A DNA stretch of 64,000 nt from an uncultured Bacteroidota bacterium (lineage in GTDB: Bacteria > Bacteroidota > Bacteroidia > Bacteroidales > UBA12481): assembly GCA_903851365.1 (NCBI GenBank), contig CAINOB010000020.1:30227-94226 (forward strand), read 5' to 3'. Within the stretch, counting starts at the first letter, position 1, and each line of letters begins with the position of its first letter. The position numbers were made by a program, and so were the translations under genes. Below the pieces are notes generated by a model. That model was not told where the DNA came from, did no database searches, and was given only the letters and a program-made list of their open reading frames with translations. Below are positions 13,487 through 49,942 of this stretch, one piece after another.

Positions 13487-14620
13487 CTAATAAAGATGTT
13501 CTTCGGTTTTCATCTCTTCACGGGTGATTTTCTTCTTATTCATCGACCACCATGCATAACAGATATAGGCAAGGACAAAGGGCACCAAAAGTGACACATA
13601 AGACATAGCCGTCAACGTGAACTTACTGGATGAGGCGTTTTCAATCGTCAATGATGATTGCAGGTTGTATGAAGAAGGATAGAACGAAGTATGGTTGAAG
13701 CCGGCGATGAGGAAAAGGCTCATGACAGTGAGGACTGTTCCCGCACCAGCGAACCATATCCCAGAAGTGCATTTGTTTTTCAGCAGTGAAGAACCTATAC
13801 CATACAATACCCCTACAACTCCAATTAGCAGCATAACCAAAACAAATGGCATCTGCAGAAAATTATGCAGGTATTTGAACTTTTCAAGAAAGACGAGTTT
13901 AGTATCCGGGTTATAAGCATAACCATTGAGAAACATCAGGCGGATAAGGAAGAACAGAAAGAAAACCAGAAAAGGTATGGTATTAATCAACAGATGTTTT
14001 TTAGATCTGGTGAAGATCACTTCATCATCTATATTATTCATGAAATAGAGGGTTGCCAATACTCTTGATAAGAAAAAAACTGCCAGACCCAGCGATAGGT
14101 TTTGTACATTAAAGGCAGCTTCAAGACCGCGTGCAGGTCCTTCCCAGTTCACCTGGTTCATCTCATTGAGGGAGAAACTGGATCCCGTAAAGAAGGTTCC
14201 AACTGCTGTACCGATCAGAATAGTTCCCAGCAAGCCATTAACAAAAAGAAATGTCTCATAGGTTTTCTGACCGAGGAAATTACCAGCTTTTGTCCGGAAT
14301 TCGTATGATACGGCCTGAATAACAAAAGCAAACAGTATCAGAATCCAAACCCAATATGCTCCGCCAAAACTCGAAGAATAGAATAATGGGAAGGAAGCAA
14401 AGAAAGCTCCCCCAAATGTAACAAGTGTTGTAAAAGTAAATTCCCATTTCCGACCGAGGGAGTTAACCAGCATGGTAACCTCCGTCTCATTTTTACCGAG
14501 GTTTCTAAAAAGGGTCTGGCCGCCCTGAACGAACATCAGGAAAACCAGCAAGCTACCCAGCAAGGAGACTATAATCCACCAATATTGTTGTAAGACGAGG
14601 TGAGACAATGATTCAAACAT
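13487..14620 (-). CDS. cydB: Cytochrome bd ubiquinol oxidase subunit II
   Basis: 377-aa polytopic protein whose start overlaps the cydA stop by 1 nt. The composition and length are typical of CydB. Confidence 0.9.
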   Translation of the reverse strand: MFESLSHLVLQQYWWIIVSLLGSLLVFLMFVQGGQTLFRNLGKNETEVTMLVNSLGRKWEFTFTTLVTFGGAFFASFPLFYSSSFGGAYWVWILILFAFVIQAVSYEFRTKAGNFLGQKTYETFLFVNGLLGTILIGTAVGTFFTGSSFSLNEMNQVNWEGPARGLEAAFNVQNLSLGLAVFFLSRVLATLYFMNNIDDEVIFTRSKKHLLINTIPFLVFFLFFLIRLMFLNGYAYNPDTKLVFLEKFKYLHNFLQMPFVLVMLLIGVVGVLYGIGSSLLKNKCTSGIWFAGAGTVLTVMSLFLIAGFNHTSFYPSSYNLQSSLTIENASSSKFTLTAMSYVSLLVPFVLAYICYAWWSMNKKKITREEMKTEEHLY

Positions 14621-16185
14621 TATTTGGTTCCTCCTTCATTTTTTGTTCCGTGTTTAATTGCCTTTAACATGATATTAACCTCAGCGATTGCCAGAACCGT
14701 AAAGGTTACTGCAAAGAGGAAGAAAGTGACCATAACACTTCCGGCATCTAGTTTTGTTACTGCGGCCACTGTAGGAAGCAGGTCCTGAATAGTCCAAGGC
14801 TGCCTGCCGAGCTCAGCAACGATCCAACCCGCCTCAGAAGCAACATAAGAAAGTGGAATAATCCAGGGAGCCAGGCGTAACCAGAATTTTCTTTGTGGCA
14901 ATTCGCCGCGTGCCGAAAAGAAGAGCATGAGAGCGAAGAAAACCATAAATCCAAATCCGAATATCACCATGATATGGAAGCTATAAAAGGTCAGAGGCAC
15001 CTGAGGAACATAATATTTAACATCATCGTTAAAACCATATCCAAAGTATTTAAACTTACTATCCAAAAAGGTTTTATCCTTAAACAGCAATTTAAGGCTG
15101 TCGGCTTTAGCAAGGTTTCCAGCAGCTTTTGCATGCTTATAATCGGTTAATGTTTGCCGGGCAACTTTGCCTCGTTCTACTTTTTCAGGAATGGATAAAA
15201 TTCCCTGGCCAGGATTGCCATGAGTAAAATCGTTAACTCCTGCAACGAATCGTTTAGGATCACCGTAGGCCATCCATGATAGAAGATTCGGCATCTCGAG
15301 TTTGAGAGCAAAGGTTTCGCCTGTCTCACGTTTTTCTTTCCCATTTAAAATACCGAAAGCTACCAGGCCTGCTTCACTTTTGCCATTATATAATCCTTCC
15401 ATGGCGGCAAGTTTCATAGGCTGAACTTCAGCAATTTGTTTGGCTGATCCATCTCCAGTTAAAGCGAGGGACACAGATGCAAGCAAGCCGAAAACTGAGG
15501 CAACAGTAATGCTACGGAGGGCCAATCGAGTTTCTTTCTTTCGTAGAAGGAACCATGCGCTAACCCCGATAACAAAAATCGATGCCAGTACCATTCCTGA
15601 AGTTATGGTATGAAGAAATTTATTTACAGCGACCGGTGAGAAGAGGACTTCCCAAAAGGAGGTCATTTCATTTCTTGCGGTTTCGGGATTGAAAGCGGTA
15701 CCAGCAGGATATTGCATCCAGGCATTTGCTACAAGAATCCACAAAGCTGAAAGGTTGGCTCCGATAGCAACCAGCCAGGAAGAAGCCAGGTGAAATTTTT
15801 TGCTCACCTTATTCCACCCAAAGAACATGACCGCAATAAATGTGGATTCCATAAAAAAGGCCATAATTCCTTCGATGGCAAGAGGTGCCCCAAAAATATC
15901 ACCGACAAACCAGGAATAATTCGACCAGTTGGTCCCGAATTCAAATTCCATTATTATCCCGGTCGCAACACCGATGGCAAAATTTATCCCGAACAGTTTC
16001 ATCCAGAACTTGGTTAATTTTTTCCATTCAGGATCACCGGTTTTCACGTAGATGGTTTCCATCATTGCAATAATCCAGGTAATCCCGAGTGTCAGCGGAA
16101 CAAACAGCCAGTGGTACATTGCAGTTAGGGCAAATTGTGCCCTCGACCAATCCACCAGAGGAGTTAAATCAATTGAAGCTAACAT
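14620..16185 (-). CDS. cydA: Cytochrome bd ubiquinol oxidase subunit I
   Basis: GTNWSNYSWFVGDIFGAPLAIEGIMAFFMESTF is the conserved CydA haem/Q-loop region. 521 aa. Confidence 0.95.
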   Translation of the reverse strand: MLASIDLTPLVDWSRAQFALTAMYHWLFVPLTLGITWIIAMMETIYVKTGDPEWKKLTKFWMKLFGINFAIGVATGIIMEFEFGTNWSNYSWFVGDIFGAPLAIEGIMAFFMESTFIAVMFFGWNKVSKKFHLASSWLVAIGANLSALWILVANAWMQYPAGTAFNPETARNEMTSFWEVLFSPVAVNKFLHTITSGMVLASIFVIGVSAWFLLRKKETRLALRSITVASVFGLLASVSLALTGDGSAKQIAEVQPMKLAAMEGLYNGKSEAGLVAFGILNGKEKRETGETFALKLEMPNLLSWMAYGDPKRFVAGVNDFTHGNPGQGILSIPEKVERGKVARQTLTDYKHAKAAGNLAKADSLKLLFKDKTFLDSKFKYFGYGFNDDVKYYVPQVPLTFYSFHIMVIFGFGFMVFFALMLFFSARGELPQRKFWLRLAPWIIPLSYVASEAGWIVAELGRQPWTIQDLLPTVAAVTKLDAGSVMVTFFLFAVTFTVLAIAEVNIMLKAIKHGTKNEGGTK

Positions 16186-16188
16186 AGT

Positions 16189-16425
16189 TTATCGGTTATA
16201 GGTGGTTAAATTTTCAAGTACATGTTTTGAGCGTTGCTCATTCGTTTTAAAGTTCTTCTTAAGAAAATCCGGCATGAAGAGGAATCGGATAATTGCAAAA
16301 AGGATAAATAGTTTGATCAGAATAATGATCCACATTTTCTTTCCCCAGCCAGAGATTTCCTTAAATCCATCAAAATAAAGGTGCCATATTCTGAAAATGA
16401 ATGATTTATCAGAATTTAACTTCAT
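16189..16425 (-). CDS. DUF4492-family small membrane protein (first gene of the cyd operon)
   Basis: IWHLYFDGFKEISGWGKKMWIIILIKLFILFAIIRFLFMPDFL matches my recollection of the DUF4492 proteins that precede cydAB in Bacteroidia. It ends 3 nt before cydA. Confidence 0.7.
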   Translation of the reverse strand: MKLNSDKSFIFRIWHLYFDGFKEISGWGKKMWIIILIKLFILFAIIRFLFMPDFLKKNFKTNEQRSKHVLENLTTYNR

Positions 16426-16467: not shown

Positions 16468-19413
16468 TCAAAATGCGTAAAAAGTTGCAGTTCCTTTGAA
16501 TATTTCCCCCTTTTTCAAGGGTTTACGCTCTTTTTGATGATGACTTGCAAAGAACATATCTCCCCCACCAGTAAAGAATGATGCCACCAGGACATCAATT
16601 TTATCTTGTGCAACCCAGGCACGAACAGCATGATTCCCATCAGAGGTTATATGAATTCCCTGATTAGCTTCATTAGCCAGTTCGGCCCAAATGATATTTT
16701 CTCGGGTAGCCCGGAAATCATTTGATCCCATCGTGGTCTGATCAGATGACCAAGACCATTGTGGTTTTACGCCAAACTTGAACTGATGAGCATTGTCTGC
16801 AGCAAATGGTTTAGCCCATCCGGCAGGACGACCGATATGATCGTCGGGATACACTGACCATTGTGCGATACGGTTCCAGGAAAGCAATTCGAATTCACGA
16901 GGAATGGCCAGTACCAGTCCTATCTGTCGTGGATCTATATCAATTTTTGTTGTAAACTGATAATCAATATTTATCCGACCTACTGAATCCATTCGATAGG
17001 TCAGCGTAATATTGGCCTCATCATAAGTGCCCTCGACCTTTATCCAGGGGCCTGCTTTATCTTTACCGGAATCCGTAATTTTTCCTTTCCAATTGGAGCA
17101 AGTATTATTTAAAGGTTGAATGTCGAGGCTATGTTCGGTATCACAGGGACCAGTTGTTAGCGGTAACATTTGCAATTCCGGCCCATCGACCTTAATTTTC
17201 AGGCCAGAGGATAACAATTGAAATACCTTTCCGTTTAGGGCATTGATGGCCAATTCATGATTACCTGACTTTAATATTACCTGATCACCTTTGGCTGCAA
17301 GTTCGGGAGTTCTGACTTCAACAAGTACAGGTGGTACTGGAGTCACAGGTTTTCCGAGGTTGATTTTATAAGAATCAATAAGGTAATTCATTGGACTAAA
17401 AATCGAAATTTCCACTTCATCCCCATCTTTTGGAGCCTCATCCGGAGTAATATTCAGGATTCCCGTCTGACCCGGATCAGCCGAAACCGCTGCAGATCCT
17501 TGTTTATTACCCAATTTCCAACGAAAAGCCAATTCTCCAAGATTAGTAAACAGGTACCGGTTTTGAACTGGTATTCGCAAAGGTTGTCCCGCTTTTGGGA
17601 GGAGAAGATTATTTACCCAGATTTTGATTGGAGAGTATGCCTTTTTCAAATGCCAGTATTCGGGTTTCGGCCTTCTCCAGCCATCGATCGGGCCCCATTC
17701 ACCATAGCCAACCAATTTTCCAGAAGGAAGATAAAAAGCATCATCAACGCCTGACCAAATAGCGCCACCAAGGCATCCCTGACTATTATACATATTATCT
17801 ACCATTGGTTCAAGTCCCCTGCCCCAATCGTCACGCACACCAGGATCAGCCACTATTTCCTGTCGGTTATAACAATTCAGGTGGCAATATTCACCAAACA
17901 GAAGCGGCCGATCGAACCTCCTGGCAACATCAGGACCACCAGGGCCAGGGTAGTGGATAACTGCTATCTGGCAATTTTTACTGCCTGCGTTATTATAACC
18001 GCCATAAGCCTGATCATGAAATGATACAGGGCGTGTTGGGTCGATTCGATTAAGGTCGGCAAGAATTGTTTCCCAAACCGGGCCCCAGGTTGATTCATTG
18101 GCCATCGACCAGATGAGGATGGATGGGTGGTTTCTATACTGAGCGACTGTTTCCAGAACTTCCCTGCGAATAATATTCAGTAGGTTTAGGTCATGCGGAT
18201 TTGCAGTTTTCCAATGCAGGTTAGCACCATGACCAACCCAGCATAAGGGCGACTCACACTCTACAAAAAAGCCAATAGAATCACATAGAGAGATGAACTC
18301 TTCAGCCGGGGGATAATGGGATGTCCGAATGTAATTTACATTGGCCTCCTTAAACAACTGCGCATCAGCCTTCCATTCATTGATGGACAAGCTGCGTCCT
18401 TTTGTGGGATGCACTTCATGCCTGTTTACTCCAAACAATTTTATAGGCCTGCCGTTAACGAAGACTTGGTTTCCCGATACCAATATTTCCCGAAAACCGA
18501 TCTTTTGAGAGACCGATTCTATCAGGGTAACATTGCTCATCAGTCGAATTTCAACAGTATAAAGACGTGGGTGCTCGGGGTCCCATTTTTCCGGACTCTG
18601 CACTCGCATATTAAATTGCTTTTTCAGGACCTGAGCATCAGCCGGCCAATCAATCTTAAAGGTTTTAGCAAGGCTTTTCTGAGTCTGGGGTCCAATGTGT
18701 GTCAGAACGATTTCCAACGATGATCCAGTTGGTATTTCTTTCTCTTTTTTAATGATCTCCAGGTTGATTTTCAGATCTGCATTCACAAATTGCTCATCAA
18801 AATCGGTTGACACAAGGAATTCTGAGACATGTAAATCCGGAACCGAAAAAATCTCTACTTTCCTTGTTATCCCTCCTAACTGATGAGCAGCATATTGCGT
18901 AGCGGATGCCAGGGTATCGGCTAAAGATTCACTGACTATTCCTATAACAAGGTCGTTCGGTTTTCCGGGTTTTATAAGTGTTGTGACATCGAGCTCAGCA
19001 GGAGTAAAACCACCCTCATGGTTACCGGCCATATTACCGTTGATAAAAACTCTTGCATCACTATAAAGACCATCACATTTTAAGATTATACGGGTACCCT
19101 TCCAATCAGCCGGTATATCCAGTTGCCGCCAATAGGCAGCACGTGTATTTTTTTCGACAGTAAACCCCTGCATCAACCATTCGCCGGGTACTTGAATTGG
19201 AGACCACGCTAATCTTTTCGGATTGACTGATTCCCAAAATCCCCTGACTGGTGAAGCACAAAATTTCCAATTACCATTCAGGTTAATCAGTGGCTTGACA
19301 ACGCCCTGACAATAGGTAGGTTTTGGTGTATATGAAGGAATAGAAGGTTCTTGTGCGAATAGATTACCAACTCCAAAGAGGAAAACCGCGGGGAGGATTA
19401 TTCGTGCATTCAT
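16468..19413 (-). CDS. Glycoside hydrolase family 2 (beta-galactosidase/beta-mannosidase-like), secreted
   Basis: Start at MNARIILPAVFLFGVGNLFAQ (signal peptide). GH2 motifs are NHEGGFTPAELDVT, NYIRTSHYPPAEEF, WSMANES (acid/base region) and LLFGEYCH (nucleophile region). Confidence 0.85.
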   Translation of the reverse strand: MNARIILPAVFLFGVGNLFAQEPSIPSYTPKPTYCQGVVKPLINLNGNWKFCASPVRGFWESVNPKRLAWSPIQVPGEWLMQGFTVEKNTRAAYWRQLDIPADWKGTRIILKCDGLYSDARVFINGNMAGNHEGGFTPAELDVTTLIKPGKPNDLVIGIVSESLADTLASATQYAAHQLGGITRKVEIFSVPDLHVSEFLVSTDFDEQFVNADLKINLEIIKKEKEIPTGSSLEIVLTHIGPQTQKSLAKTFKIDWPADAQVLKKQFNMRVQSPEKWDPEHPRLYTVEIRLMSNVTLIESVSQKIGFREILVSGNQVFVNGRPIKLFGVNRHEVHPTKGRSLSINEWKADAQLFKEANVNYIRTSHYPPAEEFISLCDSIGFFVECESPLCWVGHGANLHWKTANPHDLNLLNIIRREVLETVAQYRNHPSILIWSMANESTWGPVWETILADLNRIDPTRPVSFHDQAYGGYNNAGSKNCQIAVIHYPGPGGPDVARRFDRPLLFGEYCHLNCYNRQEIVADPGVRDDWGRGLEPMVDNMYNSQGCLGGAIWSGVDDAFYLPSGKLVGYGEWGPIDGWRRPKPEYWHLKKAYSPIKIWVNNLLLPKAGQPLRIPVQNRYLFTNLGELAFRWKLGNKQGSAAVSADPGQTGILNITPDEAPKDGDEVEISIFSPMNYLIDSYKINLGKPVTPVPPVLVEVRTPELAAKGDQVILKSGNHELAINALNGKVFQLLSSGLKIKVDGPELQMLPLTTGPCDTEHSLDIQPLNNTCSNWKGKITDSGKDKAGPWIKVEGTYDEANITLTYRMDSVGRINIDYQFTTKIDIDPRQIGLVLAIPREFELLSWNRIAQWSVYPDDHIGRPAGWAKPFAADNAHQFKFGVKPQWSWSSDQTTMGSNDFRATRENIIWAELANEANQGIHITSDGNHAVRAWVAQDKIDVLVASFFTGGGDMFFASHHQKERKPLKKGEIFKGTATFYAF

Positions 19414-19536
19414 ATCAGAATTGTAATAAATAAGGGTTACTAAGATAATCGATAAATGACACACATTTGTTAGAATGAGACTGGTCGGTCTGTAGTCAAT
19501 TTATTATCTTGCTGCGATTTTTAAACAATTCTGCCC

Positions 19537-21045
19537 GTGAAACGATTTTGGCTTTTTTTTGTTCCTGGTCTGGTTATCGGGATTATTTTAGTTTTATCTG
19601 GAAATAAAGCAGTTGAAGCTACCTCAAGCGATAAATTCTGTAATTCCTGCCATATTCATCCTCAGGCGGAATTTTCCTGGAAGAAATCGCTTCATTATGA
19701 AACGAGGAGTGGGTTTCACGCACATTGTGTTGAGTGCCATTTACCACCAAAAGGTCATGGGTATCTTCCTGAAAAAACCCGTACCGGATTGAGGGACCTT
19801 TGGAGCTATTGGTTTAAGGATTCAGCTTCATTTAACTGGGATGCAAAATCAAAACTTGATTATGCCAAGGGTTATGTTTATGAATCAGCCTGCCTGAAAT
19901 GCCATCCAAACCTTTATCCGGCAAAATTGACCAAAGAAGGTTCAGATGCTCATTTATATTATGATGCACAGATTCAAAAAGGTGAAGATATACGTTGTAT
20001 CAATTGCCATTTAAATGCCGGGCATTATGATCCCAACTATTCACATAAGGCTAATGCAGGGTTTGGTAAGGAAGTTGTATCAGGGGTAATCTATAAAGAA
20101 CCTACGAAGGTTGAGAAGTTTGAATCATTTGAAGAAAAAGTTCCGAATTCCGGAGTTTCCTTTAAAATGGTAGCGATTCCCGGGGGTACTTTCAATATGG
20201 GAAGCCCTGATGATGAGCCGTTCCGTAAGCCTGATGAAGGTCCGGTAAGGCAGGTGAAGATCAGTCCATTCTATATGGCTGAGGTTGAGGTAAGCTGGAA
20301 TGAATACCTCGCCTTTTATGCACAAACTGCGAGACAAGGCAAGACAGCAGTTAAGACTGACCTAAATACGGTTACCACAGTTGATGCAATAATCGGAGCG
20401 ACTCCACCCTATGGCCAACCTGATCAAAACTGGGGCAAAGGCAAGCGGCCGGTGATTTCAGCCAGTTTTACCGCAGCGCAGACTTACTGCAAATGGCTAT
20501 CAATTGTTACAGGAAAGAATTATCGGTTACCTACCGAAGCTGAATGGGAATATGCAGCCCGTGCAGGAAAGGAGACTCCTTATTTCTTTGATGGAAATCC
20601 GAAAAAATTTGTCAAGAAAAAATTCCTCTCATCGAAACGGGATACGACCATGATTAACCGTTTTGTGGTTTACAAAGAGAACAGTCAGGCTAAAACCCAG
20701 GAACCGTCATTTGTTTTACCTAATCCGTTTGGCTTAAAGAATATGCTTGGTAACGTTGCGGAGTTTTGTTCTGACTGGTATGCAGCGGATACTTATTATA
20801 AAAATCAGGGTGTTGTTGCAGATCCAAAAGGTCCGGTTAGCGGCAAGGAGCATGTAGTAAGAGGCGGAAGTTATAAGAGCAATGCCGACCAGGTACGTGC
20901 GGCTGCCCGTGAGGCCACACAAACACAATCCTGGTTGCGGACAGATCCTCAATCGCCAAAAAGTATCTGGTGGTATTCAGATTGTTTTTATGTTGGATTC
21001 AGGGTAGTTTGCGAATATGATTCACTCACTGGCAAAACGAAATAG
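19537..21045 (+). CDS. Membrane-anchored tetrahaem cytochrome c (NapC/NirT-like) fused to an FGE-sulfatase-like (SUMF1/GldK-like) domain
   Basis: GTG start and TM helix FWLFFVPGLVIGIILVL. Four CxxCH motifs (CNSCH, CVECH, CLKCH, CINCH) lie in the first ~170 aa. FGE-fold motifs follow: GGTFNMGSPDDEP, RLPTEAEWEYAARAG, GNVAEFCSDWY and RGGSY. Confidence 0.75.
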   Translation: MKRFWLFFVPGLVIGIILVLSGNKAVEATSSDKFCNSCHIHPQAEFSWKKSLHYETRSGFHAHCVECHLPPKGHGYLPEKTRTGLRDLWSYWFKDSASFNWDAKSKLDYAKGYVYESACLKCHPNLYPAKLTKEGSDAHLYYDAQIQKGEDIRCINCHLNAGHYDPNYSHKANAGFGKEVVSGVIYKEPTKVEKFESFEEKVPNSGVSFKMVAIPGGTFNMGSPDDEPFRKPDEGPVRQVKISPFYMAEVEVSWNEYLAFYAQTARQGKTAVKTDLNTVTTVDAIIGATPPYGQPDQNWGKGKRPVISASFTAAQTYCKWLSIVTGKNYRLPTEAEWEYAARAGKETPYFFDGNPKKFVKKKFLSSKRDTTMINRFVVYKENSQAKTQEPSFVLPNPFGLKNMLGNVAEFCSDWYAADTYYKNQGVVADPKGPVSGKEHVVRGGSYKSNADQVRAAAREATQTQSWLRTDPQSPKSIWWYSDCFYVGFRVVCEYDSLTGKTK

Positions 21046-21075: not shown

Positions 21076-22434
21076 ATGTCAAATAAACCTAATCTTTCAA
21101 GAAGGAATTTTCTGGGCAAGGCAGCAGCAGTAGGGGCTGTAGGAGCCATTAGTCCAGCCTTGATTACCTCTTGTGCACCAAAAGGCAAATCAAAAATTGT
21201 TGAATACCTTAATTGCACCTTATTAGACAAAGCTCCTGATGGTCCGGAACTTAAGGCAGGTCTTATTGGTTGCGGTGGACGTGGTACAGGTGCCGCCATG
21301 AATTTCCTAAGTGCCGGTCCGAATTTAAAGATCACAGCACTTGCCGATGTATTTAAGGACAGGCTAGAAGATTGCAGAGGCAAATTAAAAAATGACTGGA
21401 AACAGGAAATTGCTGACGAAAACTGTTTTGTAGGATTCGATGCTTATGAAAAACTTCTGGCAACAGGAGTAGATATCGTAATTTTAGCCACTCCCCCCTA
21501 TTTCAGGCCGATCCATTTTGAAGCAGCTGTACAGGCAAAAAAACATTGTTTCCTGGAAAAACCAGTTGCAACTGATGCAGCCGGAGCTCGTTCGATCATG
21601 GCATCAGCAAAAAAAGCTGCTGGCATGGATCTTTCGGTCGTCACGGGAACACAACGTCGTCATCAGCGCGATTATGTTGAGATTTATAAAAAAGTTGCCG
21701 GTGGAGCTATTGGTGAGATTACCGGAGGGAATGTTTACTGGAATCAGTCAAAGCTGTGGCATACCAATCCAAAACCTGAATGGAGCGAAATGGAAGCAAT
21801 GATTCGTAACTGGGTAAACTGGACCTGGTTATCGGGAGATCATATTGTAGAGCAACATGTTCATAATATTGATGTTGGATGCTGGTTCATGGGAAATCAT
21901 CCAGTCAAAGCATTAGGATTTGGATCCAGACAGCGCAGGGTAACAGGTGATCAGTATGATAATTTCAGTATAGATTATGTTTTTGAAGATGGACGTCATA
22001 TGCACAGCATGTGCCGTCAGATCAACGGTTGCGGCGGAGGTGTTTTCGAGCGTTTCCAGGGCACTGAAGGAGCTGCATTGCTCAACGGAAATAATATCAG
22101 GCTGGTAGACCTTGCTGGGAAAGATATCTGGACATTCCCATATATTGTTAATGCCCAAGGTGAAAAGAGCATTGCTATTGGACCTTATGACCAGGAGCAC
22201 ATTGACTTGGTAACTTCGATCAGAACCCATAAGCCCATCAATGAGGCAGAGTCCACTGCGATTTCAACAATGGTTGGTATTATGGGAAGGATATCAGCAT
22301 ATACCGGGAAAGAAGTGACATTCGATGAAATGATGAATTCCGACATGAATCTGGGACCAAAAACATTTGTTCTTGGACCGGTAAATGATGTTTCAAAAGA
22401 GTTACCAATTCCGGGTGAAGCTTTTGTCGGCTAA
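21076..22434 (+). CDS. Tat-exported Gfo/Idh/MocA family oxidoreductase
   Basis: Twin-arginine signal SRRNFLGKAAAVGAVGA, Rossmann motif GLIGCGGRGTGAA and the EKP motif (CFLEKPVA). Confidence 0.8.
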   Translation: MSNKPNLSRRNFLGKAAAVGAVGAISPALITSCAPKGKSKIVEYLNCTLLDKAPDGPELKAGLIGCGGRGTGAAMNFLSAGPNLKITALADVFKDRLEDCRGKLKNDWKQEIADENCFVGFDAYEKLLATGVDIVILATPPYFRPIHFEAAVQAKKHCFLEKPVATDAAGARSIMASAKKAAGMDLSVVTGTQRRHQRDYVEIYKKVAGGAIGEITGGNVYWNQSKLWHTNPKPEWSEMEAMIRNWVNWTWLSGDHIVEQHVHNIDVGCWFMGNHPVKALGFGSRQRRVTGDQYDNFSIDYVFEDGRHMHSMCRQINGCGGGVFERFQGTEGAALLNGNNIRLVDLAGKDIWTFPYIVNAQGEKSIAIGPYDQEHIDLVTSIRTHKPINEAESTAISTMVGIMGRISAYTGKEVTFDEMMNSDMNLGPKTFVLGPVNDVSKELPIPGEAFVG

Positions 22435-22445
22435 AGAATCTATCT

Positions 22446-23399
22446 ATGGATAATAAAGACAACACCAGGCGTGGATTTATCCGGAAGGCAACATTTGCTG
22501 TTGCAGCGGCGACAGCAGCACCGGCTATCCTGAAGGCGCAAGGCTTAAATGAAGGCACAAGGCTCAAGGCACAAGGTGCAGGGCCTTTCAAGCTTAAGTA
22601 TGCCCCGTCGATTGGCATGTTCAGTGCGACTGTCGGAAATGACGATCCGATTGACAATATCAGGTTTTGCAATGATCAGGGTTTTCGTGCTGTTTTTGAT
22701 AATGGCTTGATGGGTCGTCCAGTCGAGGAGCAGGATAAAATAGCTTCGGAGCTGGCGAGACTGGGAATGGATTTGGGGCCGTTTGTTTTATATGCAGATT
22801 TTGGGGTGACTTCGTTTGTTACAAATGACCCAGAAAAGAGGTCCATGCTGCTGGACAAGATGAAGCAAGGAGTTGAACTTGCCAAGAGGACCAATGCCAA
22901 GTGGGCACTGGTTGTTCCTGGCAGGTACGATGAAAGGCTTCATCTGGATTATCAGACTACGAATGTTATTGAAAACCTTCGTTATTGCGCTGAGATCTTT
23001 GAACCCGCCGGTTTAACAATGGTTCTGGAACCACTAAATACTATTCATGACCATCCGGGATTATTCCTGACCAGAATACCGCAGGCTTACCTAATCTGCA
23101 GGTCCGTCAACAGTCCCTATATTAAAATTGTTGATGACCTTTATCATCAGCAGATTACTGAAGGGAACCTTATTCCAAACATTCAGGCGGCTTACAGTGA
23201 AATAGGAGCTTTTCATCTTGGCGATAATCCGGGGAGAAATGAGCCTACTTCCGGTGAAATCAATTACAAGAACATATTCAAATTTCTTTTTGAGAAGGGC
23301 TATAACGGGACCTTATGCATGGAGCATGGTAAATCGATCCCAGGGAAAGAAGGAGATGCGAGGGTTATTGCGGCATATCGTGAAATGGATGCTTTTTAA
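22446..23399 (+). CDS. Tat-exported xylose-isomerase-like TIM-barrel protein (sugar isomerase/epimerase/lyase superfamily)
   Basis: Twin-arginine signal TRRGFIRKATFAVAAATAAPA. TMVLEPLN and LCMEHG segments are typical of the AP-endonuclease-2/xylose-isomerase-like barrel. Confidence 0.7.
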   Translation: MDNKDNTRRGFIRKATFAVAAATAAPAILKAQGLNEGTRLKAQGAGPFKLKYAPSIGMFSATVGNDDPIDNIRFCNDQGFRAVFDNGLMGRPVEEQDKIASELARLGMDLGPFVLYADFGVTSFVTNDPEKRSMLLDKMKQGVELAKRTNAKWALVVPGRYDERLHLDYQTTNVIENLRYCAEIFEPAGLTMVLEPLNTIHDHPGLFLTRIPQAYLICRSVNSPYIKIVDDLYHQQITEGNLIPNIQAAYSEIGAFHLGDNPGRNEPTSGEINYKNIFKFLFEKGYNGTLCMEHGKSIPGKEGDARVIAAYREMDAF

Positions 23400-23454: not shown

Positions 23455-24279
23455 ATGAAAAGGATAGTTCCGTTTCTTATTGGTTTTGGCCTTGTTGCAT
23501 TTTCTTCATGCAAGCAGGATGAGGTAGCTTTAGCACCTCAGACAGTCAGCAAGGTTGAGGATCAGATATTAAACGCTGATCTACTGGATGATGTACTTGA
23601 TGAAGTGGAGTTCACTTCAGATGTGTGGTTCGGTGAATTGAAAACCGGGTTTGTAGATTGCAGAACGGTGACAGTTGTACCCGAGGACAAGGTAACCTGG
23701 CCAAAAACAATCACTATCGATTTTGGAACCGAAGGTTGCATGGTTCGTGACAGTGTATTTAAAAAAGGGAAAATTATCATTAACCAGAATGCGTCCCAAA
23801 ACGGGCGAGCATGGACCAAGGTGATCACCTTTGATAACTACTATGTCAACGGAAACAAGATTGACGGTACCAATACAACCTCTTTTAGCCGCGCGTCAGG
23901 CAGTCCTACCTGGACATCTACAATAGTGGGCGGACAGGTTACCACAGCTGAAGGGATGATCAAAACCCGCGAAGCGATTCATGTCAGAGTTCAAACCCGA
24001 GGTATTGATACAAGGCTCGATCGGACTGATGATGCATTCCAGATTTCAGGGCATGCTGCCGGTACAAGAATTGATGGGAAAAACTTTTCCTGGGTGATCA
24101 ATGAACCATTGGTTATCAGCAATAATTGCCGTTGGATACGGCGGGGTGTTAAAGTTCTTACTCTTGAAGGCTTAAGTGATATTACAATTAATTATGGTGA
24201 TGGCGAATGCGACAATGTTGCCACTTTAACTCAGGACGGCGTATCAAAGGAGATAACTCTCAAAGGTAGAAGACAATAG
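23455..24279 (+). CDS. Lipoprotein of unknown function
   Basis: Lipobox MKRIVPFLIGFGLVAFSSC. I recognise no other motif. Confidence 0.5.
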   Translation: MKRIVPFLIGFGLVAFSSCKQDEVALAPQTVSKVEDQILNADLLDDVLDEVEFTSDVWFGELKTGFVDCRTVTVVPEDKVTWPKTITIDFGTEGCMVRDSVFKKGKIIINQNASQNGRAWTKVITFDNYYVNGNKIDGTNTTSFSRASGSPTWTSTIVGGQVTTAEGMIKTREAIHVRVQTRGIDTRLDRTDDAFQISGHAAGTRIDGKNFSWVINEPLVISNNCRWIRRGVKVLTLEGLSDITINYGDGECDNVATLTQDGVSKEITLKGRRQ

Positions 24280-39186: not shown

Positions 39187-39948
39187 ATGAAAAGATCGAG
39201 TTTAGCTTTTACGCTTTGTTTAATGGCTTTAATTGCTATTCAGGGTATAGCTCAATCAACAAAGGACGCAATGGCCCTTTTTCATGAGATTGACCATACT
39301 GCTGCGCCCAATACTTTGGTTAATAAAGAAAAGGACAAAGGTTGGAGGATTCTTTTTGATGGAAAAACGACCAATGGGTGGCATGGCTATAATCTGAAAA
39401 TTTTTCCGGGCTGCTGGATAATTGAAGATGGAGCGTTTACAATGACGAGCAAAGGAGGTACTGAAGATCAGGATATCATAACAAACCGAAAGTATCGCAA
39501 TTTTGCTTTAAGCATTGATTACAAGCTCACCAAGGGCGCTAATAGTGGTATTATTTACCAGATTGCAGAAGATCCGAAATATAAATTTCCATACGAGACC
39601 GGTCCTGAGTTTCAGGTTATTGATCATGAGAACTGGCCCGACAAGCTGGAAGACTGGCAGATTAACGGAGCAAATTATGCCATGTACCCTCCAATTGCCC
39701 ATCCATACAAACCTGTTGGTGAATGGAATCACCTCTTACTCGTTGTTCAGGGCAATGATGTAACACAGGTTCTTAATGGAGTAATCGTTGTTCATTACAT
39801 AAAAAATTCGGAAGAATGGCTAAAACTGCGCAACAGCGGCAAATGGTCAAACTTCCCAGACTGGGGAAAATTCGATGATGGATACATCTCACTTCAAAAT
39901 CACGGAACCAAAGTGTGGTATCGCAACATCAAGATAAAAGAACTTTAA
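39187..39948 (+). CDS. DUF1080 (3-keto-disaccharide hydrolase family) protein, secreted
   Basis: Signal peptide, GWRILFDGKTTNGWHGY and the C-terminal LQNHGTKVWYRNIKIKEL. Confidence 0.8.
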   Translation: MKRSSLAFTLCLMALIAIQGIAQSTKDAMALFHEIDHTAAPNTLVNKEKDKGWRILFDGKTTNGWHGYNLKIFPGCWIIEDGAFTMTSKGGTEDQDIITNRKYRNFALSIDYKLTKGANSGIIYQIAEDPKYKFPYETGPEFQVIDHENWPDKLEDWQINGANYAMYPPIAHPYKPVGEWNHLLLVVQGNDVTQVLNGVIVVHYIKNSEEWLKLRNSGKWSNFPDWGKFDDGYISLQNHGTKVWYRNIKIKEL

Positions 39949-39968
39949 AAACCGATAACAAAGCTACC

Positions 39969-41462
39969 ATGGCATCCTCAAATCTTTCACGTCGAAGTTT
40001 TTTAAAGACCACCTCCATTGCTGCAGCAGGAATTTCTGTTATACCGAGTAATACGGTCAGCGGATTGGGTCATAAGGCACCGAGTGATAAACTAAATATC
40101 GCAGGAATCGGGATCGGCGGGAAGGGCCATCCAAATCTTGTGGGTATGTCGACCGAGAACATTGTCGGATTATGCGATGTTGACTGGAAATATGCCGACC
40201 GTTGTTTCAGTGAATTCCCAAAAGCGAAGAGGTACTGGGATTGGCGTAAAATGTTTGATGAGCTTGGGAGCTCCATCGACGGGGTTATGGTAGCTACTGC
40301 CGACCATAATCATGCCGGAATAGCCGCAGCAGCCTTATCGATGGGAAAACATGTATACTGCCAGAAGCCCCTAACGCATTCAATTTATGAATCGCGACTT
40401 CTTACCCGCCTTGCAGCAAGCCATAAGGTTGCCACTCAAATGGGTAACCAGGGGAATTCGGGACATGGTGTCAGGCAGATATGTGAATGGATCTGGAATG
40501 GGGAAATCGGAGAAATCAGGGAGGTGCATGCCTGGACCGACCGCCCAATATGGCCTCAGGGATTGCAGCGTCCAACGCAGGTAATGCCTGTGCCAAAAAC
40601 TTTAGACTGGGATCTCTTTATTGGTCCGTCTAAAATGCGGCCATACCATGAGGCTTATACACCATGGAACTGGAGAGGCTGGTGGGATTTTGGAACAGGG
40701 GCTTTTGGTGATATGGCCTGTCATGTTCTTGATCCTGTGTTTCAATCATTAAAATTAGGATATCCGGAACAGGTTCAAGGTAGTTCGACTTTGATCAATA
40801 CCGAGTCGGCCCCGCAGGCTGAATCAGTAAAATTCTCTTTTCCTGCCCGCTTAAACCTGCCAAAAGTAGGCTTGCCGACGGTTGATTTGCATTGGTACGA
40901 TGGCGGGTTGCTTCCTTCTGTTTTTGAAATGCTTCCTGAGGGGGAAAACTTAATGGCGGATGGATTAGGAGGCTGCCTTTTCATAGGTTCGAAGGATACC
41001 CTGATTTGCGGATGCGGTGGATTCAACGGACGATTGCTATCGGGCCGTGTACCGCAGGTTACGCCATATTTAACACGTATTCCCGGTGCGGTTGGCTATG
41101 TTGATGGTCCTCATGAGCAGGACTGGATTCGGGCCTGTAAAGAATCACCTGAAAGCCGACGTGAGGCAACATCGAACTTTGCTTATTCAGGGCCTTTCAA
41201 TGAAGCAGTCCTTTTGGGGGTTCTGGCGATCAGGTTACAGGGCCTGAATAAATCGTTGAAATGGGATGGGGAAAATATGAAGTTTACCAATATTTCGCAG
41301 CAGGAGGAATTAAAGCTGGTTACACAAGAGGAATTTAAAGTTATCGATGGCCATCCGAACTTCAATAACAAGCTTGCAAAGTTTAATGCACTGGAATGTG
41401 CAACAGAATATATCAGGCATACCTATCGGGAAGGCTGGACCTTACCCGCAATGCCAAAATGA
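39969..41462 (+). CDS. Tat-exported Gfo/Idh/MocA family oxidoreductase
   Basis: Start at MASSNLSRRSFLKTTSIAAAG (twin-arginine signal), Rossmann motif LNIAGIGIGGKG and VYCQKPLTHS (EKP-equivalent). Confidence 0.8.
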   Translation: MASSNLSRRSFLKTTSIAAAGISVIPSNTVSGLGHKAPSDKLNIAGIGIGGKGHPNLVGMSTENIVGLCDVDWKYADRCFSEFPKAKRYWDWRKMFDELGSSIDGVMVATADHNHAGIAAAALSMGKHVYCQKPLTHSIYESRLLTRLAASHKVATQMGNQGNSGHGVRQICEWIWNGEIGEIREVHAWTDRPIWPQGLQRPTQVMPVPKTLDWDLFIGPSKMRPYHEAYTPWNWRGWWDFGTGAFGDMACHVLDPVFQSLKLGYPEQVQGSSTLINTESAPQAESVKFSFPARLNLPKVGLPTVDLHWYDGGLLPSVFEMLPEGENLMADGLGGCLFIGSKDTLICGCGGFNGRLLSGRVPQVTPYLTRIPGAVGYVDGPHEQDWIRACKESPESRREATSNFAYSGPFNEAVLLGVLAIRLQGLNKSLKWDGENMKFTNISQQEELKLVTQEEFKVIDGHPNFNNKLAKFNALECATEYIRHTYREGWTLPAMPK

Positions 41463-49227: not shown

Positions 49228-49926
49228 ATGAAAACCAAATCTTACATTCTCAATCTGGTCTTCTTAGTAATTTTCGTTTTGGAGCTGATAGGAACCATAA
49301 ATGGAAGCAAATGGTTCGATTATCCTGTAAAACCACTCATTCTTATCTGGATAGCAGTATATTTTATCATCATGGCTAAGCCCCGGCCTTACCATTGGCT
49401 GGTAATACTGGCATTTTTCTTTTCATGGGCGGGAGATTTACTTTTAATGTTCGGGTGGAAAAATGAAATGTTCTTTTTTGCAGGTGTAGGTGGATTTTTC
49501 CTATCACAAATAACCTACATTCAAGTCTTCCGAAAATACTCCGTATCAGAGGGGAAAAAGATTTTCGCCCGCAAGCCGATTTGGATCTTACCTTTTGCGA
49601 TATACCTGGTTTCTATATACCTCTATGTTTATCCTCATCTTGAGGGAATCATGAAACCTGTGGTCGCCTTATATGCATGTTCTCTGATTGGCATGTGTGC
49701 CGCGGCATTTAACCGCATCGGGCTTGTGAATTCATCCAGTTTCCAGATTCTGTTCATCGGAGCCATTTTCTTTGTCATTTCTGACAGCCTTTTGGCGATC
49801 AACAAATTCGCAAACCCGATACCCATTTCAGGTTTCCTGGTAATGTCGACCTATATGCTTGCGCAATATCTTATTATGCTTGGGCTTATTCGGAGCAGCA
49901 ATTCGTATCAGGAAAAAACATCTTAG
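49228..49926 (+). CDS. YhhN-family membrane protein (lysoplasmalogenase family)
   Basis: Eight-helix-like hydrophobic profile. The FFFSWAGDLLLMF and FFVISDSLLAINKF motifs are characteristic of YhhN/TMEM86. Confidence 0.7.
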   Translation: MKTKSYILNLVFLVIFVLELIGTINGSKWFDYPVKPLILIWIAVYFIIMAKPRPYHWLVILAFFFSWAGDLLLMFGWKNEMFFFAGVGGFFLSQITYIQVFRKYSVSEGKKIFARKPIWILPFAIYLVSIYLYVYPHLEGIMKPVVALYACSLIGMCAAAFNRIGLVNSSSFQILFIGAIFFVISDSLLAINKFANPIPISGFLVMSTYMLAQYLIMLGLIRSSNSYQEKTS

Positions 49927-49942
49927 GCAGGAATTCCATATT

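Follow-up and report, generated by a model that had tools for sequence, protein, structure and literature searches.

The gene considered here lies in a window of 64,000 nucleotides (the whole stretch of DNA that was analysed) and raises the question of why a predicted cytochrome of the NapC/NirT/NrfH type should be joined, in one polypeptide, to a domain with the fold of the formylglycine-generating enzymes (FGEs). The answer proposed below, to which we assign a probability of about 0.5 on the evidence of sequence and gene context, is that the fusion, with predicted haems and a predicted flavin, would sit in the membrane as the outlet for electrons from a dehydrogenase system of the periplasm. 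The features of the gene and of its neighbours are collected in Table 1.

Table 1. Features of the fusion gene and of the genes around it; positions are those of the window.
Feature	Position	Strand	Residues	Basis and remarks
DUF4492-like small ORF, cydA and cydB (cytochrome bd quinol oxidase)	13487..16425	-		ORFs; context only
Whole fusion gene (TM anchor, tetrahaem NapC/NirT/NrfH-type cytochrome, FGE-fold domain)	19537..21045	+	502 aa, GTG start	ORF list, translation, PF03264 and PF03781
N-terminal TM helix	19546..19602	+	4-22	FWLFFVPGLVIGIILVLSG; read from sequence; counterpart in alignment: TM helix region of NrfH (2j7a)
NapC/NirT/NrfH-type tetrahaem domain	19552..20037	+	6-167	PF03264 (Cytochrom_NNT), 89.3 bits (cut-off 24.1)
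Haem motif 1, CNSCH	19639..19653	+	35-39	Followed by I-H-P; C35, C38, H39, H41 and P42 invariant
Haem motif 2, CVECH	19726..19740	+	64-68	C64, C67 and H68 invariant
K80...D87 pair	19774..19797	+	80-87	Aligned to the Lys/Asp pair of NrfH (2j7a)
Haem motif 3, CLKCH	19891..19905	+	119-123	C119, C122 and H123 invariant
Haem motif 4, CINCH	19996..20010	+	154-158	C154, C157 and H158 invariant
FGE-fold domain	20092..21042	+	186-502 (Pfam match 210-463)	PF03781 (FGE-sulfatase), 150.4 bits (cut-off 23.3)
Predicted ApbE flavinylation motif D283-A-I-I-G-A-T289	20383..20403	+	283-289	Thr289, predicted FMN site; low-confidence model loop
Site of the two Cu-binding cysteines of FGE	20860..20910	+		Here RGGSYKSNADQVRAAAR; 3-residue deletion, no Cys; alignment to 6s07, 5nxl and 2aft
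Clade-specific insert DPQSPKSIWW	20944..20973	+	470-479	Absent from canonical and generic FGEs in the same alignment
Gfo/Idh/MocA dehydrogenase, Tat-exported, predicted electron donor	21076..22434	+		PF01408, PF22725, twin-arginine signal
Xylose-isomerase-like TIM barrel	22446..23399	+		PF01261; Tat-like N-terminus
Lipoprotein-like protein	23455..24279	+	274 aa	Last gene of the co-directional cluster; conserved in the related locus L001

A first, sequence-only reading of this DNA had described a single ORF made up of a TM helix, four haem sites and an FGE-fold half, and the ORF call, the homologues and the Pfam search that it had suggested, in which both families score above their gathering thresholds, agree with that description. 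The two halves are not separate genes brought together by a sequencing frameshift, because the one-ORF fusion recurs in all of the top 120 clusters and, among reference genomes of Bacteroidia, KSB1 and Acidobacteriota, at eight loci. Furthermore, both domains and exactly four CxxCH motifs are present in each of the 120 homologues listed.

The N-terminus (MKRFWLFFVPGLVIGIILVLSG) consists of one hydrophobic helix, in agreement with the N-termini of the homologues, where K2, G11 and G15 are conserved, and the c-type haem motifs suggest that the remainder of the protein is located in the periplasm. The tetrahaem domain gives a profile match to D. vulgaris NrfH over the full domain length (2j7a_C, E = 9.1e-9), and its four haem motifs, on whose conservation the sequence-only reading depended, are invariant among 55 homologues at 62-84% identity and also in 10 sequences down to 28% identity. 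His 53, 139 and 163 are invariant too and, from the alignment, are candidate distal haem ligands, while K80, G84 and D87 are retained even at 28-46% identity. The equivalent pair in NrfH consists of Lys82 and Asp89, which we take to be residues of the menaquinol site, near haem 1. With the NrfH profile match and the aligned K80/D87 pair, the assignment to the NapC/NirT/NrfH type holds, and the role of this half as a quinone-pool module with predicted haem attachment is supported.

Like NrfH, NapC, CymA and NirT, the fusion has one N-terminal TM helix, four CxxCH motifs within about 165 residues and a PF03264 match above threshold. It departs from NrfH in its first motif, CxxCHxH instead of CxxCHxM, and from the named equivalogs in its scores, which fall below every NCBIfam cut-off (63.2 vs 134.2 bits for NrfH, 52.4 vs 310.6 for NapC/NirT and 57.7 vs 478.2 for TorC). 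Moreover, the C-terminal FGE-fold domain of 330 residues is found in none of the named members of these families.

For this second half, the AF2 model (pLDDT 86.4, pTM 0.89) was compared with known structures by Foldseek; the best match was PvdO (5hha; TM 0.79 on the target, E = 7.5e-19), followed by FGEs (E about 1e-17), with probability 1.0. The fold is the same as in FGE/SUMF1, PvdO, pFGE/SUMF2, PorK/GldK, the C-domain of EgtB and ToxD, with which the RLPTEAEWEYA, GNVxEW and RGGS motifs are shared. The copper site of FGE, in contrast, is lost: residue-by-residue alignment sets GGSFLCHESYCNRYRVAAR of the T. curvata enzyme (6s07) against GGSY, a three-residue gap and KSNADQVRAAAR in the fusion, and both copper-ligand cysteines are gone. 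The same deletion is present in all aligned members of the related clade; the Streptomyces-type FGEs in that alignment retain the cysteine pair. No sulfatase gene belongs to the fusion operon, and the only one seen in the loci examined lies about 10 kb away in a related locus (L081). The missing catalytic residues contradict an identity as a formylglycine-generating enzyme, which had been called unlikely before, and the lack of a conserved sulfatase neighbour agrees with this. Two elements separate the clade from other FGE-fold proteins, the block D-A-[IV]-[ST]-x-[AP]-[ST]-x-P-[YWF] and the insert DPQxPKSxWW, and its gene context is made up of Gfo/Idh/MocA, apbE and cytochrome genes, not of sulfatase, pyoverdine, ergothioneine or T9SS genes.

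The flavin transferase ApbE recognises the motif D-x-x-[S/T]-G-A-[S/T] and attaches FMN to its last residue (PMC12052999). Residues 283-289 of the fusion, DAIIGAT, fit this motif except at position 4, which is Ile and not Ser/Thr; the family consensus is DAISGAT. Among the 120 fusion homologues listed, 119 contain D-x-I-x-G-A-T, and in 95 of those the motif is perfect, reading DAISGAT (91 sequences) or DAITGAT. Three branches of the clade, represented by 121 sequences, all have an invariant Thr289, whereas the block is missing at the corresponding position of generic FGEs in the alignment. The position of this residue is predicted to be extracytosolic, being downstream of the TM anchor and of the c-type haem domain, and the stand-alone relatives possess Sec signal peptides. 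Branches other than that of the fusion carry G-P-T or R-P-[TS] instead of G-A-T, and the stand-alone branch with apbE in its operon has D-A-V-T-R-P-T; ApbE is not known to accept R-P for G-A.

An apbE gene is found in 13 of 39 clade loci, compared with none of 41 generic FGE loci (p = 2.6e-5), and the stand-alone operon of Pedobacter has the order FGE-like protein, Gfo/Idh/MocA enzyme, ApbE. The Gfo/Idh/MocA partners carry no flavinylation motif (one chance match in 27), which leaves the FGE-like protein as the one credible target for ApbE in such operons. The 64-kb window has no apbE gene, and neither do L001, L081 and L084, which belong to the closest relatives, so that flavinylation of this fusion would need a housekeeping ApbE, assumed to be encoded elsewhere in the genome.

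The predicted site shares with recognised ApbE substrates (NqrC, RnfG, NosR, PceC, DUF2271, DUF3570 and the flavinylated fumarate and urocanate reductases) an extracytosolic position. It resembles them in a seven-residue motif that ends in Thr and fits the published one except at position 4, and apbE is co-localised in related operons though not in the window. The proposed relay of electrons by a flavin between a membrane carrier and a periplasmic enzyme would likewise resemble the roles of such substrates (PMC8238504). What differs is the carrier, which would be an FGE-like fold and not FMN_bind, DUF2271 or DUF3570; in addition, many clade members have the non-canonical G-P-T or R-P-T. Pfam and Foldseek detected the FGE-sulfatase fold in the fusion and none of the known flavinylated folds (FMN_bind, DUF2271, DUF3570, NqrB/RnfD). 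The FGE fold, Gfo/Idh/MocA and NapC go unmentioned in the main text of the 2021 and 2024 flavinylation surveys, and no paper was found on an FGE-fold ApbE substrate or on the pairing of FGE-like and Gfo/Idh/MocA proteins.

The gene for a Tat-exported Gfo/Idh/MocA enzyme is adjacent in 24 of the 39 related loci and in none of the 41 generic ones (p = 1.5e-10), which supports the functional tie to a downstream Tat-exported enzyme that had been suggested for this locus. The sequence-only reading had centred on the NapC fusion, but what is conserved is the FGE-like protein together with its Tat-exported partner, and the cytochrome is a lineage-variable add-on to this core. Fusion of the FGE-like domain to a cytochrome has arisen independently with two unrelated types, and each kind of fusion forms a large family. 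NapC fusions occur in anaerobic or microaerobic Bacteroidia, KSB1 and Acidobacteriota, and fusions to a class I cytochrome c (PSCyt1/Cytochrome_CBB3) in Verrucomicrobia and Bryobacteraceae, while the unfused form is found in Pedobacter, Flavobacteriaceae, Chitinophagaceae and Planctomycetes. The pairing has exceptions, namely a dihaem fusion without an adjacent Gfo/Idh/MocA gene (L089) and a NapC fusion followed by SusC/SusD (L091).

The ApbE-type motif with its invariant Thr, the apbE genes of related operons and the independent fusions to two cytochrome types suggest that the FGE-like half probably takes part in redox chemistry through a covalently bound flavin and is not a passive docking module. 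The proposal that it is a lectin-like docking or substrate-binding domain, made when only the sequence had been inspected, is not supported as it was worded. In its present form this proposal would have a cofactor-free domain that binds protein or glycan hold the dehydrogenase, or its substrate, close to the tetrahaem domain, and the dehydrogenase would reduce the haems directly. The lost copper site agrees with it, non-catalytic FGE-fold scaffolds such as PorK/GldK were found among the matches, and the adjacency of the Gfo/Idh/MocA gene fits plain docking equally well. However, plain docking explains neither the invariant Thr within an ApbE-type motif nor the operonic apbE genes of the related loci, nor, given established redox chemistry, how a hydride donor such as NAD(P)H would deliver electrons to one-electron haems without a flavin-like converter. 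It is the alternative that survives best, and we nevertheless consider it unlikely.

Directly downstream of the fusion gene are two genes for Tat-type enzymes, as had been reported from the sequence. In 27 orthologues of the first, the Gfo/Idh/MocA partner, the RRxF and GxGxRGxGAA motifs, D91, EKP, D255 and H263 are kept, and all such partners possess the twin-arginine motif, an intact dinucleotide loop and EKP; the closest solved relative is DgpA (E = 3e-9). The second enzyme, the TIM barrel, gives sub-threshold matches to hydroxypyruvate isomerase and to ketose epimerases, and its PDB relatives include 3ngf and the 3-keto-D-glucoside 4-epimerase 6wn6. It is a frequent but not universal member of the operon, being present in L001, L081, L084, L026, L031, L032 and L034. 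The lipoprotein-like protein has no Pfam or NCBIfam match, and there is no terminator-like site on the + strand between the four co-directional genes. In L084, a relative with 85% identity, the fusion gene is immediately preceded by the DUF4492-cydAB operon in divergent orientation, and cytochrome bd may possibly be the sink for the quinol produced. The neighbours in L081 include transporter, lactonase and sugar-kinase genes, which points to sugar catabolism.

According to the electron-outlet reading, electrons would travel from a sugar to the bound NAD(P) of the Tat-exported enzyme, then to a covalent FMN on Thr289, through the four haems and finally to menaquinone. Periplasmic ApbE would attach FMN covalently to Thr289 of DAIIGAT in the FGE-fold domain. 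The Gfo/Idh/MocA enzyme would oxidise a sugar or glycoside and, like those periplasmic relatives that have been characterised, would use NAD(P) that stays tightly bound; periplasmic Tat-exported enzymes of this type hold NAD tightly (PMC8121099, Liu 2021; 10.1101/2024.03.25.586180, Nasseri 2024). The tethered flavin would accept the hydride from bound NAD(P)H and serve as a two-electron to one-electron converter, from which single electrons would flow via the four haems to menaquinone, and the menaquinol could be oxidised by the cytochrome bd encoded nearby or by fumarate reductase. From NAD(P)H (about -320 mV) to menaquinone (about -74 mV) the path is downhill. We know of no direct precedent that could be cited for a hydride passing from the NAD(P)H bound in one enzyme to a flavin that is tethered to a second protein.

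The direction predicted here, into the quinone pool, is opposite to that of the NrfH/NapC family, as the characterised NapC/NirT/NrfH proteins are all quinol dehydrogenases that feed periplasmic reductases, a function also reflected in the molecule name of 2j7a. A reversed flow, in which menaquinol would reduce the haems, perhaps the FMN, and then a periplasmic reductase, with the Gfo/Idh/MocA enzyme reducing a keto-sugar or another oxidised compound, would agree with this family rule. It would also agree with the ApbE-flavinylated fumarate and urocanate reductases, which receive membrane electrons through their FMN (PMC8238504). Electrons would then have to move uphill, as menaquinol is at about -74 mV and ketone/alcohol couples linked to NAD(P) are at about -150 to -360 mV. 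The relatives of the Gfo/Idh/MocA partner are dehydrogenases that open catabolic pathways, and the neighbours in L081 suggest the breakdown of sugars; we regard this direction as distinctly unlikely.

Slightly less probable again is that the FGE-fold domain itself binds and oxidises a small periplasmic substrate, for example a catechol or dihydroquinoline like those proposed for PvdO, and that the haems receive the electrons. The Gfo/Idh/MocA enzyme would then be a neighbour in the pathway and not a direct redox partner. PvdO, likewise periplasmic and of the FGE fold, is the best structural match, and the strong sub-threshold NCBIfam match to 'dihydropyoverdine dehydrogenase' points the same way, although its 93.3 bits are far under the family cut-off of 500. 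The loci examined have no pyoverdine or other siderophore genes close by, and the ApbE association would be unaccounted for, even if the two readings are not exclusive, as the flavin could serve as the oxidant of such an enzyme. Finally, an unusual FGE or related protein-modifying oxidase, in which electrons delivered by haem replace the copper/thiol chemistry, is very improbable, because the strong Pfam FGE-sulfatase match and the database names of the homologues ('formylglycine-generating enzyme' or 'SUMF1/EgtB/PvdO family nonheme iron enzyme'), which are automatic transfers and not experimental findings, are set against the clade-wide deletion of both copper ligands and the lone sulfatase of L081.

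The electron-outlet reading can be compared with the glucose-fructose oxidoreductase of Z. mobilis and with the glycoside 3-dehydrogenase pathway of B. thetaiotaomicron (BT2158/AL3), with which the Gfo/Idh/MocA partner shares the Tat signal, the Rossmann loop, EKP and the same problem of cofactor recycling. Its gene is followed by that of the xylose-isomerase-like TIM barrel, much as BT2158 is accompanied by BT2156. There, reduction of a second sugar regenerates the bound cofactor, in a redox-neutral ping-pong, whereas a dedicated haem and predicted flavin protein is encoded alongside the enzyme here, which implies net oxidation coupled to respiration. Furthermore, the partner falls outside the BT_2158 family (28.1 bits vs a cut-off of 750, NF058561), and Pfam found no DUF1080 (3-keto-glycoside hydrolase) gene in the cluster. 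LacABC of Caulobacter, the FAD-type glucoside 3-dehydrogenase and ThuAB also connect periplasmic sugar oxidation to the respiratory chain via a cytochrome subunit (PMC8121099). Their catalytic subunits, however, are of the FAD/GMC type (or ThuB with ThuA), and none has an FGE-fold protein or a NapC-type anchor.

As the periplasm has no NAD pool, recycling of the bound cofactor is at issue, and it is an explicit open point in both studies of the Bacteroides 3-keto-glycoside pathway (PMC8121099; 10.1101/2024.03.25.586180). Tentatively, and at somewhat less than even odds, we propose from sequence comparison that the FGE fold constitutes a new class of ApbE-flavinylated redox domain that re-oxidises, through its covalent FMN, the tightly bound NAD(P)H of Tat-exported Gfo/Idh/MocA dehydrogenases. 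In Bacteroidota, Planctomycetota, Verrucomicrobiota, Acidobacteriota and KSB1 the two would together make up a very widespread, previously unrecognised family of sugar dehydrogenases that work in the periplasm and feed respiration. The link to the respiratory chain would then be the NapC anchor, making the present system a sugar:menaquinone oxidoreductase, or a fused cytochrome c of class I, or a free carrier. For the stand-alone branch this would also mean that there are dedicated ApbE enzymes whose recognition motif is the non-canonical T-R-P-T. Tat-exported Gfo/Idh/MocA 'oxidoreductases' are very numerous in Bacteroidota, Planctomycetota and Verrucomicrobiota; if the proposal is correct, a defined protein family would be their missing acceptor, and periplasmic sugar oxidation would become respiratory and energy-conserving. 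As a carrier of phosphoester-linked FMN, the FGE fold would then be new to the list of ApbE substrates, and thousands of proteins that now bear FGE or SUMF1/EgtB/PvdO labels would gain a function. The prediction of glycan catabolism from gene clusters in environmental and gut Bacteroidia would improve as well.

The FGE-like half had also been called cysteine-less, which is correct for the catalytic pair and not for the domain as a whole: C318 is invariant in all three clade branches, the NapC fusions show no variation at C483 or C492, and C411 is kept almost without exception. Within the DPQSPKSIWW insert, D470, P471, Q472, P474, K475, S476 and W478 are invariant over the three branches. The insert and the loop with the flavinylation motif are the two parts of the AF2 model with low pLDDT, and the insert could possibly contact the flavin or a partner protein.

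The sequence-only reading described a membrane-anchored tetrahaem NapC/NirT-type cytochrome joined to an FGE-fold domain in one gene, and the ORF was found at the position and with the two halves that it had claimed (see the table below). In Pfam searches, residues 6-167 match Cytochrom_NNT with 89.3 bits (gathering score 24.1) and residues 210-463 match FGE-sulfatase with 150.4 bits (gathering score 23.3), while the N-terminus of the protein consists of one hydrophobic helix. The four haem-binding motifs (CNSCH, CVECH, CLKCH and CINCH) are invariant among 55 homologues of 62-84% identity, as are the additional histidines H41, H53, H139, H163 and H170. Furthermore, all of the 120 homologues listed contain both domains in a single ORF of about 500 aa with exactly four CxxCH motifs, and the same one-ORF fusion is encoded in reference genomes of Bacteroidia, KSB1 and Acidobacteriota. 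Thus, the possibility that two separate genes had been joined by a frameshift or an assembly artefact is excluded, and the NapC-FGE fusion is almost certainly real.

Features of the window, with coordinates, strand and gene content
Feature	Coordinates	Strand	Description
Cytochrome bd operon	from 13487	-	DUF4492-like small ORF (16189-16425), cydA and cydB
GH2 gene	16468-19464	- (cyd strand)	998 aa; between the cyd operon and the fusion gene
NapC-FGE fusion gene	19537-21045	+	502 aa; GTG start
Gfo/Idh/MocA gene (Gfo partner)	21076-22434	+	Tat-exported
TIM barrel gene	22446-23399	+	xylose-isomerase-like
Lipoprotein-like gene	23455-24279	+	274 aa; lipoprotein-like N-terminus (…AFSSC); no Pfam/NCBIfam match; last gene of the fusion/Gfo/TIM cluster
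Glycoside hydrolase block	35724-63061		dense in large enzymes: two GH38-like, GH20 hexosaminidase, 1362-aa GH29 fucosidase with CBM6, 1361-aa DUF2961 + GH123 protein
Second Gfo/Idh/MocA gene	39915-41462	+	515 aa; GFO_IDH_MocA_C2 domain
Two-domain gene	49859-52162	+	767 aa; N-terminal APH-type phosphotransferase and C-terminal class III aminotransferase domains

A search of representative sequences returned mostly multi-repeat FGE proteins and few clusters of full-length fusions (P0123, P0124, P0127 and P0210). The domains of P0140 (FtsH_ext + FGE) and P0161 (FGE + FAD-oxidase_C) are truncated; both look like chimeric or partial predictions and were left out of the analysis. At two MAG loci, L007 and L008, either the fusion gene or the adjacent Gfo gene is broken across overlapping ORFs in different frames, and in L007 the longest ORF has three CxxCH motifs and the Gfo gene lies in several pieces. 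These splits are probably frameshift errors of long-read assembly, not real pseudogenes.

A profile built from the N-terminal domain alone matches the NrfH of D. vulgaris over the whole domain (E 9.1e-9), a structure deposited as "cytochrome c quinol dehydrogenase". K80 and D87 of the fusion align to a Lys and an Asp of NrfH, seven residues apart, and both are invariant even in sequences of 28-46% identity; we take this NrfH pair to be residues of the menaquinol site. At the aligned motif NrfH has CxxCHxM, whereas the fusion has CxxCHxH. Membership of the NrfH, NapC/NirT and TorC equivalogs was rejected, as the scores fall under the NCBIfam cut-offs. Thus, judged by its profile matches, the cytochrome half falls within the NapC/NirT superfamily and outside every named equivalog tested.

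As for the other half, the alignment reads GGSY---KSNADQVRAAAR in the fusion against GGSFLCHESYCNRYRVAAR in the T. curvata FGE; three residues are deleted in the fusion, and both copper-ligand cysteines are lost. A true FGE function was rejected because this pair is missing. The description of the domain as cysteine-less holds for the copper ligands, but not literally, since C318 is invariant in the clade and C483 and C492 are invariant among the NapC fusions. When the whole protein was modelled with AF2 on a shallow alignment (62-84% identity), the result was unusable (mean pLDDT 54); the FGE half, remodelled from an alignment of three branches of its family, reached a pLDDT of 86.4 and a pTM of 0.89. 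Only two stretches of this model have low confidence, the motif loop (residues 266-300 of the window protein) and the DPQ..WW insert (residues 466-485), as would be expected for segments that require a cofactor or a partner. Foldseek placed PvdO closest (TM 0.79 on target), followed by FGEs, pFGE, PorK, ToxD and EgtB, and it found no flavoprotein of the FGE fold in the PDB. Membership of PvdO was rejected on family score and gene context, and the domain is thus a member of the FGE fold superfamily that is neither an FGE nor a PvdO.

To place this domain among its relatives, one genome per species was scanned, and the ORFs of 80 loci were then searched with the neighbouring proteins of the window. 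The FGE-like half belongs to a clade that reaches far past the NapC fusions and occurs in three forms. The first is the NapC fusion (loci L001-L008). The second, itself a large family, occurs in Verrucomicrobia and Bryobacteraceae and has class I cytochrome c domains (PSCyt1/Cytochrome_CBB3) fused to it, either one or two. The third is a stand-alone protein that carries a Sec signal peptide and is about 320 aa long, found in Pedobacter, Eudoraea, Chitinophagaceae, Saprospiraceae, Planctomycetes and Gemmatimonadota. A homologue of the Gfo/Idh/MocA gene of the window adjoins the FGE-like gene in 24 of the 39 clade loci and in none of the 41 generic FGE loci used as controls (p = 1.5e-10), a pairing that is common, not universal, in the clade. 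The conserved core is therefore the FGE-like protein together with the Tat-exported Gfo enzyme, and the cytochrome part depends on the lineage. That one domain has been fused to two unrelated cytochrome types is a classical sign that the parts are functionally linked in electron transfer. We regard the fusion as a functional partner of the Tat-Gfo enzyme, with a probability of about 0.85. In the locus L091 (8001-14908) a SusC/SusD pair follows the NapC-FGE fusion gene in place of Gfo, which indicates that the fusion can head a polysaccharide utilisation locus.

A twin-arginine motif and an intact GxGxRGxGAA loop occur in all the Gfo partners, as do D91, an EKP motif, D255 and H263; these proteins are predicted to be active dinucleotide-dependent dehydrogenases that are exported folded. 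Among solved proteins, the C-glycoside 3-oxidoreductase DgpA comes closest to the window's partner, with an E value of only 3e-9, and this partner scores far under the cut-off of the BT_2158 family. Similarity of the TIM barrel to hydroxypyruvate isomerase, ketose 3-epimerases and a 3-keto-glucoside epimerase stays, in each case, under the family cut-off. An alternative to oxidation at C3 comes from L081 (10001-17999; a 63%-identical relative), whose operon contains the fusion, an MFS/nucleoside-H+ symporter-type transporter, Gfo, the TIM barrel, a PF10282 lactonase and an FGGY sugar kinase; the transporter, lactonase and kinase hint at a route from aldose to aldonolactone by C1 oxidation in at least some members. 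A promoter and terminator scan, otherwise at chance level, found no + strand terminator between the genes of the window's cluster. The lipoprotein-like protein that ends this cluster is kept in L001 and lies outside the wider module.

ApbE is a periplasmic FAD:protein FMN transferase. A 2025 review gives its seven-residue motif as D-x-x-[S/T]-G-A-[S/T], with FMN put on the last Ser/Thr (PMC12052999). In complete Pedobacter genomes the operon order is FGE-like gene, Gfo/Idh/MocA gene and apbE (PF02424), and apbE homologues occur in 13 of the 39 clade loci against 0 of the 41 control loci (p = 2.6e-5). Since the Gfo partners have no conserved motif, they were rejected as ApbE targets, which leaves the FGE-like protein as the one credible target in these operons. 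The putative motif of the window protein is D283-A-I-I-G-A-T289, with Ile at position 4; D-x-I-x-G-A-T is present in 119 of the 120 fusion homologues listed, of which 91 read DAISGAT and 4 read DAITGAT, the others having Ile or Val at position 4. When 121 sequences covering the three branches were aligned, the motif Thr, P291 and Y292 proved invariant, as did a second clade-specific element, DPQxPKSxW; both blocks are missing from the aligned generic FGEs. The G-A positions vary across the clade, and a plain [ST]GA[ST] pattern misses most members. On these sequence patterns, FMN is rather likely to be attached at Thr289 of the fusion.

The 64-kb window contains no apbE, nor is one found near any protein with the canonical G-A-T in the loci examined; apbE within a locus goes with non-canonical variants (T-R-P-T, S-G-P-T and similar). 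This distribution would fit a picture in which dedicated ApbEs serve the non-canonical motifs and the canonical ones are left to a housekeeping ApbE. The stand-alone proteins from apbE operons (L019, L087 and L088 of Pedobacter; L021, L023, L030, L031 and L034) have D-A-V-T-R-P-[TS] where the canonical motif has S-G-A-T; D-A-V-T-R-P-[TS] is present in all of the 120 Pedobacter-type family sequences listed. If these proteins are flavinylated, their ApbEs recognise Arg-Pro in place of Gly-Ala, for which we know of no demonstration.

Taken together, the Gfo enzyme would oxidise a sugar by means of a tightly bound NAD(P), FMN tethered to Thr289 would take the hydride and pass single electrons to the four haems, and the haems would reduce menaquinone at an NrfH-type site. 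Thermodynamically, the step from NAD(P)H to menaquinone runs downhill, whereas the reverse does not. The data show the domain architecture, the conserved haem motifs, K/D pair and Thr motif, the lost copper site and the gene associations with Tat-Gfo, apbE and cytochromes; the steps of the chain are inferred, and we hold the odds for the complete chain to be even. The protein would combine an NrfH/NapC anchor with an ApbE-type flavin relay, following a logic known from flavinylated extracytosolic systems (PMC8238504), with the difference that electrons would here flow toward the quinone pool. For BT2158, Liu et al. 2021 proposed a bound cofactor and an unnamed acceptor (PMC8121099); if true, the mechanism would supply the acceptor left open there. 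The main text of two systematic surveys of ApbE substrates includes neither the FGE fold nor Gfo/Idh/MocA nor NapC, and a literature search, covering few subscription journals so that absence is not proof, found nothing relevant on the pairing of FGE-like, NapC, Gfo and ApbE proteins.

Cytochrome bd is a plausible sink for the quinol produced. In L084 (6913-9851), an 85%-identical relative, the cyd operon is the immediate upstream neighbour of the fusion gene, in divergent orientation, and the GH2 gene that separates the two in the window looks like an insertion there or a loss in L084. None of the RNA-seq runs searched contains the fusion locus; the DNA runs that contain it (X1-X5) are lake or freshwater metagenomes and, together with the glycoside hydrolase block, suggest a freshwater specialist in the degradation of complex glycans. 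The second Gfo/Idh/MocA protein, encoded in the midst of glycoside hydrolases, has no relation to the fusion's partner; its domain architecture presumably resembles that of the NAD-dependent GH109-type glycosidases.
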